From Candidatus Omnitrophota bacterium (GTDB taxonomy: Bacteria; Omnitrophota; Gorgyraeia; Gygaellales; Profunditerraquicolaceae): 44,258 bases of DNA. Numbering within the stretch: the first letter of the stretch is position 1; the number at the start of each line of letters is the position of its first letter. Positions 1-15,000 of the stretch are shown one piece after another. The stretch lies in assembly GCA_018895075.1 (NCBI GenBank), contig JAHIOW010000048.1, positions 1 to 44,258 on the forward strand, in the 5' to 3' direction. Position numbers: made by a program.

Positions 1-3000
1 CGTTTTATCTTTTATTTCGTTATCTACCAATATGTTAGCATAAATATGAGAAAGAACAAGCATTTTTTCCGACGGGAGAATAAATCTCTCCGACGAGAAA
101 ATAGAGAAAATTTAGTCAGAGTTTTTCAGAGCTCTCTTCTTGTCTGTGTATTCCGGTCTGCCTATTTCCCGGTAGGCCTGGTATACCCTTCCCAGGTTAT
201 TTAGTAGTCTTGAGCTATTCGGAGAATACTTCAAGGTTCTTTCAAAAAAAAGTATAGGTTTCCTCCAATAATCATTCTGCCTGATTGTTAAAGACGAATA
301 AAAAACCAATAGGCATATTGAAAGTAATATCGTAAAAACTCTCAAATTTCTCGTTCTGTACATACGACTTAAGCCGCCTGTCTTCTTCTGTTCGCCAAGC
401 GCCTTTTCTAATTGCTCAGGCGTAATCACCCCGGCATCAATGAGCATCTGCCCTATTAGAATAATATTCCCTGTCGGCACTATATCTTCCTCTTACATTT
501 CAGGGACTGTCCCCGATGGGGACTGCCCCTTCGTTTTAATATTCTTTCCTTTTAGATATCTCTAAATAAAGTTCCATTTCTAAGGCGTCAACAATCTTCT
601 TGAGGGTAAGTAAGGATATATTTTCCCTCCCCCTCTCAATGCGGGATATGATTTGTTGAGAGGCCCTTAATTTTTTGGCTAATGCATCTTGGGTCAATCC
701 TTTTAGTTTGCGTATAGACTTTATCCTCTCTGCAATCAATTTACAAAATTCATCTTGCGGCCTTGTAACGGCTATTGCTTTAGTGACAGATATTCCTTTA
801 TCCTTGTATTTTTCTTTTAATTTTTCGTATATTGCCTGCCAGAATTCTATACGCGGGTTATTCCAGGCATCCTTGCGCATTTGCCTTTTTATCCTATTCC
901 AATTCTGCAAGAAAATCAAGGGTTTTAGATAATTCTTAAATACTTCTTTGGGGATATTCTTTCTGGAAAGCAACAGGCCCGACAAAGACAAAAAATGCTT
1001 ACTTTCGGGTTCTTTTAATATAGATTGGGCCTTTTTAATGCTTATCTTCCTGTCCCAGAGCCAATCTCGTTTTAGAATCATATGGATTCAACCTCTTTTT
1101 CGATAATTCTGTCTATTTCCTTTTTGAAATGGCGTTCTATATCGCTATAATCAATATTTTTCTTTGATTGTAATTCTAAAAGCCCGGTTTTCATATCCAG
1201 GCGGCTATATGTGCTAAACCATCTTATAAGGGTCTCGCGCATCAGGGGGTTGCCGAACCTTAAGGAAAAGTCCGATAACTTCATAAATATCTGAGAAAGG
1301 CAATATAAATCATAGAAATCTTTTGCCTCCTGCCTGCCTCCTTTTGAAATTCTTTTACCTATGGAATCCTCTGTTTGCAGAGTGCCCGTTAGGGCATAAA
1401 TTTTTCTAACATAAATATCCTCTAATGATAAAACTTTTATTCCGTTTATTATCTTGGCCGGCTTTATGCGCTCAAGATAATCCTGAACAAAATCTAACTT
1501 TAAAGACTCTTTTGCATTGATACCTATAGAGTAAACCAGTATTTTTACTCTATTTTTCCGGGCCTCTTCCGCGATAATCCCTATTTTCTTTTTTAATGTC
1601 AGCGACAAGAATTTTACTATTTCAAGCACCCTTATTTTACTAAAACTTTGCGTAAAAAAATCCAAATCTAAAGATTGGCGGTGGTTAAAATAATATAATG
1701 ACAAGGCGGTCCCGCCACCCAAATAAAAATCATCTATTTTATTAGATAAGACTTCTAATACCTTATTCTGGTAATCTATTACCTTAGTCTTCATAATCGC
1801 AAGTATACAACATAAAAGTTGTTTTGTCAAGCACTTTTACAACTTTTAAGTTGTAAAAATAACTAAAAAAACTTCTTCATCATAAGATTTATATCCTCCC
1901 CCTCATGGTAAAGCTCTGCCATGGCCTCAGCCAGCAGGGGCGAAAACTGCTTGCCTGCAAGCTGCTTAATTTCTTTCACCGCCTCTTCTTTAGAAAGGGT
2001 GCGACTGTAAGGCCGGTCAGTGGTCATAGCGTCAAAGGTATCCGCCACAGAGATAATTGCCGCAATCAGCGGGATTTGTTCCTGCTTTAACCCTTCTGGA
2101 TAACCTGTGCCGTCATATCTCTCATGATGATATTTTACGCCCAGTATGGAGTCCCCTAATTCCTTTATGGGCTCTAATATAGTGGCGCCAACCAAGGGAT
2201 GTTGCCTTATTTTTTCCCTCTCCTCTTCAGTCAAAGCCTCTTCTTTATTTAAGATTGACTCCGGGATGCCAATCTTACCTATATCATGCAGGAGCGCGGC
2301 AATGTGCAAATGTTCTAAGAACTGATCATCAAAGGCCTTTTTATTCTTCTGGCCAAGTTTCTTGGCAACCTCAAGAGAAAGTGTGGTTACTCTCTGGGTA
2401 TGGCCATGGGTATAATGGTCTTTGGCATCAATAGCCGCAGCCAGGGCGATAGTAGTATGAATAAAAAGCACATATTTTTTATTCAATTCTAATTCTAATT
2501 CCTTAAAAAGCTGGGCATTTCTTATGGCCATAGCCACATCTGAGGCCAAGGCACTAAAGAAATCCAATTCCTCTTTAAGAAATCTTGTTCCGTCTTTTTT
2601 CTTTCCCAGCAAAAGGATGCCCAATAATTCATTCTGGAAATAACTGCTGATACAGGCCTCTGCCTCAAAAAGGCCCATTTGATACAAGGCGCCTTTTAAA
2701 ATCTGTTTTAAATCCGGCGTTATCCTTTTACTTAACCACCTTTTCCCTTGTTCATAGACCAGCGTTCCGTCAGATAAAAGTTTTCTTTCATGGCGTTCTT
2801 TGAAAAAACGGATGAGCAAATTATCTAAATCCATACGCACGAATTTAAGCGGAACCTTTAAACCTAATGCCCCCCTAGAATCTGTCAGGACATAGGTATT
2901 TTTTTCTCTATCGTGGAGCAATATCCCGGCGTGACTGACATTTACCTTGTGCACAATGGTGCGGATAATCATCTTAATCAGGGTATCCGGTTCGTGGACC

Positions 3001-12000: not shown

Positions 12001-15000
12001 TCATTAAATAATCAACTGCCTTTTCAGATGAAGCGCCGGTTGGTAAGGCCTCTAATCTTTCCAGAGACCACCTCAACCAGGGTATACTATATAGGAACCT
12101 GGAAGATATACAGTGAATTTTCACGGGGACGGCTGCGGCAATAACAAAGGAATCCATGAGACTGGAATGATTAGCCACTATAATAAAATTATTTTTCTTT
12201 GGTAGATTCTCTAAACCCTCCACCTTAAGCCTAAAGAACAATTTTAATACTATTTTAGATAAGGCCCTGAATATCGCATACCACATACTTTGAACCTGTT
12301 CCCAATAATTTTATTTCGTTGCTTCGCTAGTCGTCCTTTTTTTAGCTGGCGCTGACCTGGGCCCTACAGAGATAATAATGGTAATATTATTGCCACGGGG
12401 CAATATATTCACAATACAGCTTTCTTGATCCCGCTCAAAATTAAGGATGCGCTGGCCATACTCAATGACATTAATCGGATTCCAATTATACATCAGCATC
12501 TGTTCCTTAAAGAAATTTACCACCCGTTCCGGGTCTGCCTTTCCCCGATACTTAAGTAACCCTGACCTGAAATTACCGCTCTGAAAAGAGTAAGACTCTT
12601 CGGGAATCAATCTAAACCCTACTGGTATTGGAATATCGCCGAATTTAAAAACAGACTGCGGCTTAAGCATCAAGTCAAGCGTAGAAGAACCTTTTTTATA
12701 AATCCCGGCGCAACCTAAAAAAACAAGCAGAGAAAAACAGAGAAACAAAATAACCAATATATTTTTCCTCATTTCCCCTTTCCTTTCTTTAAAATGAACC
12801 TCTCTACTTTTTGATAAATATTTTTTATATCCTTTTGGCTCAGGCCCGCCCTTCTGCCTGTATCTATTAACTGCGCGGGGGTAATTATGTCTTCGGGCAT
12901 ATGGCTATCAGAGCTTAGGATTAATCTCGCCCCCCACTTTAAGGCATACTCTACTACGTGAGGATTGGTATCCCGGTGATTTTTACGGGAAGTCACTTCT
13001 AAAAATATATTTTTTCTCTTTGCCAGTTTGACATCCTCCTCGCTGATTAAACCGGGATGAGCCAGGATATCAATATCTGCCTCTAAGGCTGCCCTATTCG
13101 TCCCTTCTACTACCGGCTCAGCCAGGGTCTGGCCATGGGCAATAATAATTTTTATCCCTTTTGCCCGCGCATATTTGGCTAAAGGCCTAAATTGCGTTGG
13201 CGGCAGGTGGGTCAACTCAATGCCAGGCAGGACCTTGATCCCTGAATCTTTCGGCCAATGGCTGCTAAATTCTAAAATCGCATCAGTGGCTGGTTTGATG
13301 TTGCTGTAGTCGGCGTGGTCAGTAATAGCTATTGCCTTATATCCCAGAGATAGATAACGCATAGCTACCTCTGATGGCAAAAGCGCGCCGTCGCTTAATA
13401 AAGAATGCGTGTGTAAGTCGTACATACTATTTTATTCTTTATCAATATTTAAATCCGAAAAGGTATTCTTCACCTCATCTATCCAACCAAGAATTCTAGA
13501 ATATAAGTCTTTATTATGGATTTTTATTACACAAGTACCTTCATATAATCTATTTTTTCTTAACTCAATTGCTTTTAACTTTTTTGAAAAATCCATGTTA
13601 TTTTATGCGCCTGGGTGGATTCGAACCACCCGCCTAGGCCTTAGGAGAGCCCCGCTCTATCCAAATGAGCTACAGGCGCATTTAATACTTAATTAGCGAA
13701 TAAACCGGATACCCTTTTAGTTTATCAGCGCCTTTTAAATCCGTAAGTTCGATTAAAAAGGCAATGCCTGCAATCTTACCCTGCAGCTGCCCGATGAGCT
13801 TAGTTACTGCCTCAACCGTACCTCCGGTGGCTAAAAGGTCATCCACGATTAAGACCTTATCGCCGGGATTAATGGCATCATGATGCATCTCTAAGGTATC
13901 TGTGCCGTATTCTAAATTATAAGTTACAGAGTTTGTTTTCGCCGGCAATTTCCCTTTTTTGCGCACCGGCACAAACCCCGCGCCTAATCTTTCGGCAATT
14001 GCCCCTCCTAAGATAAACCCCCTGGCTTCCACTGCCACTACCGAATCTATATCTTTATTTTTATATTTAGTCACTAAGGCATCCACTGCCAGCTTAAATG
14101 CCTTTTTGTCTTTTAATAATGTGGTTATATCTTTAAATAAAATCCCTGGCTTAGGAAAATCAGGGATATTGCGAATGCAATCTTTTAGCTCTATTTTTTT
14201 CTTTCGCATCTCTTTTCACCTCTATTGTAACTGATTAAAATTCAAATACTTATATCATGGGGGAGCGTCCCCAAGTTTACTGATACCACTCTTTTTCCTG
14301 CTCCTGGATAAATCGCCTTAATTTCTTCAATGCCTCATTTTCAATCTGGCGCACCCTCTCCCGCGAAACCCCTATCTTATCGGCTACCTCAGCCAAAGTA
14401 TGTATTTGGCCGTTTACCAAACCAAAACGCATATCTAAAACCTCTTTTTCTCTATTCGTCATTATCTCCAAAAGGCTAGCTACCTTTTCCTTATCCAAAA
14501 AATACTTAATCTCAGCGTCAGGCGGCGCGGTAGTCTGATCTTCAACTATATCCTCAACCTGGCTCTCGCCCTCTTCGCTAATGGGCGCTTCCAGCGAGGA
14601 GGTCTGCGCAGACAACCAGAAGTTTATCTGCTCTGTCTTTTCTTTAGATAGTTTCATTTTCTTGGCAATCTCCCTGTCCGAAGGCTGACGTTTTACTTTT
14701 TGCGATAACCGCTCTTTTGTCTTTTTCCATTTAGCAATGAGTTCGTTCATATAGACCGGGATGCGGATCAGTTTACCCTGCTCGGATATTGAGCGAATAA
14801 TCGCCTGTTTAATCCACCAGGCGGCATAAGTCGAAAATCTAAAACCCTTTTTCGAGTCAAACCTATCCACTGCCTTCATTAGGCCCAGATTGCCCTCTTC
14901 AATTAAATCCAACAGCGGTATCCCCAAATGCATATATCTTTTTGCAATATTAATTACCAGCCGCAGATTCGAGCGGATCATCTTCTTGCGCGCCTGCTCA

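Follow-up and report, generated by a model that had tools for sequence, protein, structure and literature searches.

In the 44,258-nt contig of a Candidatus Omnitrophota bacterium analyzed here (GCA_018895075.1, contig JAHIOW010000048.1; hereafter the window), a tight gene run occupies positions 12286-1863, entirely on the minus strand. It has ten parts when the START and reductase domains of a fusion gene are counted apart:

11693..12286, minus strand: PlsC-type acyltransferase, 197 aa (PF01553, E 2.9e-25; HX4D motif intact)
10141..11703, minus strand: START-reductase fusion ORF, comprising the next two domains
11254..11703, minus strand: START/SRPBCC lipid-binding domain, residues 1-150 (PF03364 and PF10604)
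10141..11223, minus strand: AAR/PigE-type acyl-thioester reductase domain with Cys456, the enzyme of cassette 1 (profiles and fold match)
7979..10144, minus strand: sensor kinase HK1, with HisKA_7TM, linker, GAF, HisKA and HATPase (PF16927, 48.6 bits; H-box intact)
7567..7959, minus strand: REC1, single-domain receiver (PF00072; phospho-acceptor Asp motif)
7179..7553, minus strand: REC2, single-domain receiver (domain profile)
5611..7173, minus strand: ALDH-superfamily enzyme of cassette 2 (PF00171; Asn175, Glu277 and Cys310)
3446..5614, minus strand: sensor kinase HK2, with HisKA_7TM, GAF and kinase (PF16927, 50.9 bits; H-box present)
3069..3434, minus strand: REC3, single-domain receiver (domain profile and motif check)
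1863..3053, minus strand: GAF-HD-GYP protein, predicted cyclic-dinucleotide phosphodiesterase (PF13487, E 7.4e-38; HD and GYP motifs intact)

Neighboring genes are spaced by -11 to +19 nt, with a 4-nt overlap at each enzyme-kinase junction (START-reductase/HK1 and ALDH/HK2). Our gene calls agree with an earlier note on this DNA, which had described the START-reductase in one tight run with an acyltransferase, an ALDH, two 7TM-GAF kinases, three receivers and an HD-GYP protein. That note took the run for one module; its gene content stands, but the run is not a single unit, as it consists of two tandem cassettes and the ALDH has a fixed kinase link of its own. The PlsC-type acyltransferase is possibly dedicated to the cassette, because it is one of three matches in the source genome; such a gene is also the nearest one upstream of the fused reductase in 41 of 90 cases. 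No exporter gene and no gene for a DNA-binding regulator were found in the cassette. Promoter-like sites (43, against 35 +/- 5.8 in shuffles) and terminators (13, against 12.8 in shuffles) were uninformative.

The START-reductase shares 31-32% identity with Synechococcus acyl-ACP reductase (AAR; TM 0.81), and the best fold match of its reductase domain is AAR 6jzy (TM 0.81), followed by the carmabin TAD (model pLDDT 92.6). Its Cys456 aligns with AAR Cys294. This cysteine, previously thought invariant on the basis of 20 homologs, is widely conserved but not universal, being kept in 60 of 63 reductases in our larger set. The label 'cyanobacterial-type' likewise fits the fold and the catalytic Cys but is too narrow, because the domain misses the cut-off of the cyanobacterial AAR profile TIGR04058 (169.5 against 449.7 bits) and scores equally well against the N-terminal half of PigE (NF053554; 174.7 bits, profile positions 2-354 of 837 only, also below cut-off). 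The class III aminotransferase fusion of PigE is absent from this reductase. Loci L088 and L092 have a PigE-like aminotransferase as an independent gene after the reductase. Among solved structures, the START domain has one significant relative, TTHA0849 (2d4r, E 7e-16).

Near-full-length START-reductase matches occur in 65 of 201 genomes of the phylum, and the best 120 matches listed in two protein searches were close fusions only. Weak matches alone in 2 of 17 family genomes had suggested that this lineage acquired the entire cassette by recent transfer, an idea rejected when a wider draw revealed the fusion in 23 of 80 further genomes belonging to the same family. An alkane pathway seems unlikely, since a PF11266 match for ADO was found neither in the cassette nor in the source genome, which is 88% complete.

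We then consider how firmly the reductase is tied to the kinase. Of 78 GTDB loci, 2 without a recognized reductase ORF and 17 with too short a flank were left out; the remaining 59 have 3 kb or more of downstream sequence, and in 53 of them the reductase is followed by a 7TM-GAF kinase. Chance expectation, estimated from the 466 matches to PF16927 that 201 genomes contain, is about 0.003 (about 0.3%), and the linkage reported in the earlier note is thus borne out. In four sets of reductase ORFs, the numbers linked to a kinase were 19 of 20, 20 of 21, 16 of 16 and 28 of 28. The weaker linkage that had been reported for distant loci follows taxonomy rather than sequence distance: within Omnitrophota, a kinase accompanies 20 of 21 reductases at 25-41% identity and 16 of 16 in the weakest-match loci (mostly 22-28% identity), and five of the misses among the 59 loci lie outside the phylum. 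None of the five non-Omnitrophota reductases with enough flank has a 7TM gene. In four loci from other phyla, START and/or reductase stand beside a TPP enzyme in apparent biosynthetic clusters. A reductase without a nearby kinase is also found in L038/L154 and L070.

The ALDH serves as the enzyme of a separate, second cassette. A 7TM gene lies within 3 kb downstream of its homologs in 20 of 20 cases, and this ALDH type occurs in 10 of 301 genomes, including genomes without a reductase match. Its Glu and Cys are kept in all 29 aligned copies, some of which are duplicates, and the closest solved structure is that of lactaldehyde dehydrogenase 3pqa. Elsewhere, REC genes precede this ALDH family or are fused to it, as REC-ALDH in L039. 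According to a preprint (bioRxiv 10.1101/2025.08.11.669332), the ALDH-annotated protein TabE acts as an acyl-ACP reductase; both proteins have Cys, Glu and Asn intact, a likeness at the residue level only. Because the direction of the reaction, as TabE indicates, cannot be read from these residues, the predicted ALDH may run either way.

Both sensor kinases exceed the PF16927 gathering score of 28.6, and their 7TM domains share 31% identity. A GPCR-like fold is predicted for this domain: the HK1 model (pLDDT 92.7) was matched in a VIA structure search by GPCRs or designed GPCR-like folds in all 50 matches listed, the best with Z 16.7 and rmsd 4.2 over 217 aligned residues, and Foldseek returned no match at E <= 0.001. 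Where HisKA_7TM appeared in our literature search, the accessible text listed it as a sensor domain and did not name a ligand. The occurrence of KS-CrtI-reductase cassettes before 7TM genes raised the idea of a polyene-aldehyde photoreceptor, which was rejected because there is no conserved helix-7 Lys for retinal; among 183 sensors, no column in residues 198-213 exceeds 30% Lys, and the Lys-rich columns are in loops and helix ends. The 7TM domains diverge rapidly as a class and average 28% identity. In addition, 51 short GAF-less 7TM kinases form arrays beside cassettes. The idea that these short kinases eavesdrop on the signals was considered: the nearest full sensor comes from the same locus for only 1 of the 51, at identities that reach only about 25-48%.

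Comparison of the relatives shows that the constant element is the 7TM-GAF kinase, and that the reductase is one among several interchangeable enzymes. The slot before the kinase is also filled by unrelated FAR, HMG-CoA-reductase-like, methyltransferase and ketosynthase (KS) enzymes, the commonest occupants being AAR-type, FAR-type, KS with its own ACP, and BioF/CqsA-like PLP enzymes; enoyl-CoA hydratase precedes 7TM kinases in L048 and L114. L108 and L054 share a KS-FabG-ACP-KS-nitroreductase-CrtI-kinase cassette but not its reductase, which is AAR-type in L054 and a non-homologous FAR-type thioester reductase in L108. Where further genes separate the reductase from the kinase, they encode GMC oxidoreductase, SDR, class III aminotransferase with GNAT or formyltransferase, ICMT and radical SAM proteins, most of them plausibly tailoring enzymes for the aldehyde or its derivatives. 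KS/ACP/FabG/FabZ sets are common neighbors, FadL porins adjoin many cassettes, and single genomes carry several cassettes of differing chemistry.

What the 7TM domain follows is the enzyme immediately before it rather than the reductase sequence; the GAF and kinase domains follow that enzyme far less closely. Of 126 kinases, 96 have the same enzyme upstream as their nearest neighbor when neighbors are judged by 7TM, 50 by GAF and 61 by kinase domain, against a shuffled expectation of 18.6 (maximum 33 in 1000 shuffles), with enzyme labels that are our own clusters and genomes that, where related, are not independent. Enzyme labels change 36 times on the 7TM tree, 60 on the GAF tree and 65 on the kinase tree. 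With the other domains controlled, the same-enzyme effect is 0.098 on 7TM identity (reached in 0 of 300 shuffles) and 0.006 on kinase-domain identity (112 of 300). GMC-linked sensors cluster together, regardless of whether reductase, ALDH or methyltransferase precedes them. Between the congeneric loci L033 and L036, reductase and sensor have been exchanged as one block: the flanking DNA is mostly 93-99% identical, the reductase 57-70% and most of the 7TM-GAF region 39-49%, and the START domain, 86% identical, lies outside the block. Similarly, the second kinases of L039 and L042 are 95% identical in GAF, 97% in kinase and 30% in 7TM, and their upstream enzymes differ. Co-evolution by sequence distance was rejected, with no diagnostic residue found; in 62 fused cassettes, reductase identity has a partial r of -0.007 with 7TM, against 0.465 with the kinase domain. 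Cassettes without an inserted enzyme have two 7TM classes about 20% identical, and no reductase position divides them. Agreement among ALDH-linked sensors is limited to 3 of 8 cases, and HK2 itself falls among the sensors linked to a reductase. The earlier proposal of a signal synthase with its cognate receptor gains partial support from the co-variation and block swaps, but not from any correspondence between reductase sequence and 7TM.

Because the sensor part changes with the neighboring enzyme, the enzyme-kinase pairs likely make and sense their own lipid signals. We consider it fairly probable that the two tandem cassettes work in this way, each adjacent enzyme and 7TM kinase making and detecting a self-made lipid signal. 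By analogy with AAR and PigE, the cassette 1 reductase would transfer the acyl group of an acyl-ACP or acyl-CoA to its Cys456 and then free a fatty aldehyde, the START domain may bind the hydrophobic substrate or product or hand it over, and the HK1 7TM domain would bind the reductase product. In cassette 2, the ALDH may supply HK2 with a second ligand, formed by oxidation of an aldehyde to the acid or, in the manner of TabE, by reduction of an acyl-thioester. HK1 and HK2 would then phosphorylate the stand-alone receivers, which may control the HD-GYP phosphodiesterase and perhaps also the enzymes, REC-enzyme fusions being present in relatives. The GAF-HD-GYP protein, found at the same position in L174 (60% identity), is likely the output of the system. 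Products, ligand binding, release from the cell and output are here predicted from the genes.

We also considered the possibility that the enzymes serve to form or alter a structural lipid of the membrane, whose level the 7TM kinase reads in that membrane, with nothing passing between cells. The frequent PlsC-type acyltransferases, the KS/ACP/FabG/FabZ sets and the sensorless biosynthetic clusters outside Omnitrophota are consistent with such homeostasis, which also predicts sensor-enzyme co-variation. However, the block exchange between congeners and the FadL porins argue against it, and several chemistries per genome together with the rarity of the ALDH type fit a label better than a structural lipid, so that we regard homeostasis as rather unlikely. 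Still less likely is that lipids from outside, for example from host or prey, are sensed and that adjacent enzymes modify or remove the ligand; ALDH, GMC oxidoreductase, GDSL hydrolase and enoyl-CoA hydratase are able to degrade, import porins of the FadL type are close by and the short 7TM kinases lie in arrays, but the commonest slot enzymes are biosynthetic and act on the cell's own acyl-thioesters. That the kinases sense an unrelated cue and merely regulate or travel with a lipid operon, as the independence of 7TM from reductase sequence, its fast divergence and the few reductases without a kinase might suggest, is very improbable, because fast divergence alone is not expected to group 7TM by enzyme better than GAF or kinase domains, and GMC-linked sensors come together whichever enzyme lies upstream.

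Returning to self-made signals, we tentatively suggest a broader reading, for which the chances seem somewhat less than even: that Omnitrophota use a combinatorial lipid signaling language, in which many unrelated acyl-thioester enzymes, placed before GPCR-fold HisKA_7TM kinases, are swapped together with the sensor domain as pherotypes, fatty aldehydes and their derivatives serve as diffusible signals, and the two pairs in the window form a relay to cyclic-dinucleotide turnover. If so, the adjacent enzyme would predict the ligand class of orphan bacterial GPCR-fold receptors. If the signals are real, aldehyde-derived lipids would join the bacterial signals, and bacterial GPCR-fold receptors would gain lipid ligands and a widespread uncultured phylum a communication system; should homeostasis hold instead, a family of membrane-lipid sensors would nonetheless have been identified. 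Each 7TM sensor here has a candidate ligand-making enzyme beside it, and the natural swaps provide matched and mismatched pairs, so that the ligand question can be tested with two genes in a laboratory strain. Our literature search, made in the main texts of a collection with few subscription papers, yielded no paper on this module.

Among known systems, a lipid-signal synthase adjoins a membrane kinase in CqsA/CqsS, LqsA/LqsS and Ralstonia PhcB/PhcS. BioF/CqsA-like enzymes and methyltransferases occupy the slot in relatives, although none is present in this stretch, and the BioF/CqsA-like ones score 194.5 and 223.3 against a CqsA-type cut-off of 428. PrsK has a proposed link to N-acyl amino acid synthases, for which our literature search found no paper. 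Its model TIGR02916 aligns with HK2 over nearly the full length, including the membrane part, the GAF region and the kinase, but the scores of the two sensors (113.1 and 88.6 bits) fall short of the cut-off of 300, the three receivers are single-domain and the cassette lacks a sigma-54 regulator such as the partner PrsR.

In the DSF/Rpf system of Xanthomonas, RpfF is the synthase and RpfG the HD-GYP partner. The resemblance lies in a fatty-acyl enzyme, a membrane kinase and an HD-GYP output together in one locus. However, the enzyme here is a reductase or ALDH and there a crotonase, with no crotonase-family synthase in the cassette, and the HD-GYP protein carries GAF while the receivers are separate genes, in contrast to the layout of RpfG. 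According to PMC5391125, RpfC binds the fatty acid signal and its sensor is N-terminal and 22 residues long, whereas the sensor here is HisKA_7TM-GAF.

With cyanobacterial AAR (TIGR04058; 6JZQ/6JZY) and the PigE N-terminal thioester reductase (NF053554; PMC8341465), the reductase shares fold, catalytic Cys, Rossmann domain and predicted aldehyde-forming chemistry. It differs from both in falling below their cut-offs, in being START-fused and sensor-kinase-linked, and in having neither a fused aminotransferase nor a detected ADO. Finally, in agr-type cassettes a variable block covers the signal enzyme and the sensor domain between conserved flanks. The signal of such polymorphic cassettes (PMC10482373) is a peptide, whereas lipid chemistry is predicted here, with many unrelated enzyme families in the slot.

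The window is the whole of contig C43 of a 1.05-Mb genome that is 88% complete. The gene layout described in the earlier note proved correct: ten genes lie on the minus strand, and the motifs are intact in the kinases (His), the receivers (Asp), the HD-GYP protein and the acyltransferase (HX4D). The features discussed here are as follows.

12286 to 1863, minus strand: ten-gene run with intergenic gaps of -11 to +19 nt, in the order acyltransferase, START-reductase, HK1 (7TM-GAF kinase), two receivers (REC1, REC2), aldehyde dehydrogenase (ALDH), HK2 (7TM-GAF kinase), receiver, GAF-HD-GYP
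536-1830, minus strand: AbiEii-type nucleotidyltransferase (34% GC) and HTH gene, directly after HD-GYP
13605-13680, minus strand: tRNA-Arg(CCT), flanked by APRT and a PHP gene and lying 1.3 kb upstream of the ten-gene run

The AbiEii-type and HTH genes are likely a type IV toxin-antitoxin pair, and comparable small pairs lie within or adjoin several cassettes elsewhere (L002, L047, L083, L159).

The nearest named relatives of the START-reductase are from Omnitrophota. Its residues 166-497 align with Synechococcus acyl-ACP reductase (AAR), and Cys456 falls on Cys294; in the structural model (pLDDT 92.6) the top match is again AAR (TM 0.81, 32% identity), followed by the carmabin TAD. The catalytic Cys and the fold are those of an AAR, but the score against TIGR04058 is 169.5 bits, below the cut-off of 449.7, compared with 174.7 bits against the N-terminal half of PigE. 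Based on these scores, we place the sequence in a wider AAR/PigE thioester-reductase group. The PigE domain converts a thioester to an aldehyde via the equivalent Cys (PMC8341465). Cys456 is retained in 60 of 63 reductase copies, and two of the three copies without it adjoin a second reductase gene. Tandem reductases recur in the family; at L001:361-1374 and L067:10950-11951, second copies without the catalytic Cys stand next to an intact one and are possibly non-catalytic partner subunits. No ADO, the alkane-synthesis partner of AAR, was found in the source genome at its 88% completeness.

Across the phylum, 65 of 201 genomes have a near-full-length START-reductase match, as have 23 of 80 other genomes of the same family. 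A GTDB scan covering 34 of 64 parts, from which the best 80 of 136 hits were kept, gave 78 new loci, 76 with a recognised reductase ORF and 59 with at least 3 kb downstream. Among these 59, a 7TM kinase lies within 5 kb of the reductase in 53; the six unlinked loci comprise one from Omnitrophota and five from other phyla, according to their record labels. We also analyzed four further sets, which partly overlap with the scan: 20 drawn from the 65 fusions, 20 loci with 25-41% identity, 15 weak hits (E between 1e-15 and 2e-9) and 20 loci from the family. Leaving aside three loci that lack a reductase ORF and two ORFs that lie too close to the end of their locus, the linked ORFs numbered 19/20, 20/21, 16/16 and 28/28, respectively. 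The 7TM profile was built from these same loci; Pfam PF16927 independently gives matches adjoining ten of the weak hits. The chance of such linkage is about 0.003, as calculated from 466 PF16927 matches in 201 genomes. Within the phylum the linkage persists to about 22% identity, and it is gone in the other phyla seen. At four loci outside Omnitrophota (L198, L202, L208, L209), the reductase lies beside a TPP-dependent enzyme together with an SDR, ligase or glycosyltransferase, and three of the four also have START; speculatively, such loci may make acyloins or long-chain diol lipids. A record labelled Candidatus Uhrbacteria (CPR; L159) carries a complete cassette of START-reductase, 7TM kinase and KS, with an AbiE pair at its flank, through either transfer or mis-binning.

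The ALDH is an enzyme of its own, forming a second cassette with HK2. Its subfamily was found in 10 of 301 genomes, three of which (G089, G185, G187; 94-95% complete) showed no reductase match. A 7TM gene lies within 3 kb downstream in 20 of 20 copies, a count that omits three copies ending too soon and two distant non-members. REC1, REC2 and the ALDH have a GC content of 35-36%, compared with 41-43% in the remaining cassette genes, and locus L174 has the frame of the window with a methyltransferase in place of the ALDH. In several loci a GMC enzyme comes after the ALDH, as it does after the reductase. An ALDH that shares the three catalytic residues, TabE, works as an acyl-ACP reductase (bioRxiv 2025.08.11.669332); the ALDH of the window may accordingly be a further aldehyde producer or else an oxidiser.

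The enzyme slot before the 7TM kinase is interchangeable. We surveyed 40 loci of high-scoring 7TM genes without a neighbouring known reductase hit, and most carry other acyl or lipid enzymes directly upstream: methyltransferase, FAR-type thioester reductase, HMG-CoA-reductase-like enzyme, ALDH, BioF/CqsA-like PLP enzyme, KS, KSIII, thioesterase, enoyl-CoA hydratase with GDSL hydrolase, or acyltransferase with HAD phosphatase. Some (L093, L097, L101, L110, L118, L122, L125) have no such enzyme there. Locus L108 is the L054 cassette with FAR replacing the AAR-type enzyme. The source genome itself holds a third cassette (C60:6270-9409) of receiver, methyltransferase (331 aa) and 7TM-GAF kinase, the last 67% identical to HK2 in the kinase domain and only 27% in the 7TM. 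At L224:9275-10966 and L228, a LuxD-like acyltransferase-methyltransferase fusion stands between reductase and kinase. Proteins of about 500-530 aa without a Pfam match occupy the slot before the 7TM sensor or its receiver at L037:8516-10111, L113:5785-7383 and L225:2502-3995, and are candidate new tailoring enzymes.

We consider it probable that small lipids made from the cell's acyl-thioesters are read by the neighbouring 7TM. Each cassette enzyme would convert the cell's own acyl-thioesters to a small lipid, which would bind the 7TM of the adjacent kinase, and the receivers would relay the signal onward to HD-GYP, with perhaps a return path to the enzymes. Some loci have a receiver fused to an enzyme (ALDH, KS, HMG-CoA-reductase-like or acyltransferase), a layout that suggests phosphorylation-based feedback. 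Against this reading, the window gene run contains neither an exporter nor a DNA-binding regulator. That the module instead serves lipid homeostasis within the membrane seems to us unlikely, and that it senses and removes lipids from outside is improbable.

In the HK1 7TM model (pLDDT 92.7) there are seven helices, with a beta hairpin in one of the loops. Every one of the 50 rows from a VIA search was a GPCR or a designed GPCR-like fold (best Z 16.7, with 217 residues aligned at rmsd 4.2), but helical bundles reach high scores easily, and fold alone shows no function; Foldseek gave matches at E > 0.001 only. GPCR-like 7TM histidine kinases are already in print (PMC13581589). A retinal-type link is unsupported, there being no conserved Lys. 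Beside cassettes at L039, L048, L082, L094, L181 and L195 stand arrays of short 7TM kinases (about 450-560 aa) that lack GAF; for only 1 of 51 distinct ones the nearest full sensor lies in the same locus.

Sequence comparison indicates that the 7TM domain tracks the adjacent enzyme. Of 183 kinases, 126 carried an enzyme label that occurred three or more times; in these, the nearest neighbour shared the label for 96 by 7TM, 50 by GAF and 61 by kinase domain, against 18.6 (maximum 33) in shuffles. The shuffles overstate significance, since relatives are non-independent and we set the labels ourselves; a better control is the contrast between domains within one protein set. Without reductase rows (n = 61) the counts were 39, 16 and 20, respectively, and unrooted FastTree trees (138 labelled of 179 rows) required 36, 60 and 65 label changes. 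In 64 fused cassettes, with other domains controlled, the same-enzyme effect on identity was 0.098 for the 7TM (0 of 300 shuffles) and 0.006 for the kinase domain. The congeneric loci L033 and L036 mostly share 93-99% DNA identity in the flanking genes, in the greater part of START and in the kinase core, apart from a 300-nt dip to about 74% in the acyltransferase; identity is 57-70% over the reductase and 39-49% over most of 7TM-GAF. The L039 and L042 kinases, whose upstream enzymes differ, are 95% identical in GAF, 97% in kinase and 30% in 7TM. Other results speak against such tracking: ALDH-linked sensors agreed in only 3 of 8 cases and ICMT-linked ones in 2 of 7, and HK2 is nearest to reductase-linked sensors. 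Reductase identity did not track the 7TM with GAF and kinase controlled (-0.007, 62 fused cassettes). Cassettes without an inserted enzyme fall into two 7TM classes, about 20% identical, which no reductase position separates. That the kinases sense an unrelated cue is the least probable of the readings considered.

Our literature search, with most subscription papers and supplements outside its scope, turned up no paper describing this module; the accessible portions of archaeal papers name HisKA_7TM without a ligand, and PMC13641062 has Omnitrophota only within a reference. Where tested, the cassette falls outside AAR, PigE and PrsK. In its proposed working it resembles DSF/Rpf, where a fatty acid binds a membrane kinase (PMC5391125), but it falls outside Rpf where tested. 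The block swaps among cassettes resemble agr. The cassettes would also work much as Cqs/Lqs and Phc do. We conclude that the module is real and is probably a new variant among synthase-receptor systems.
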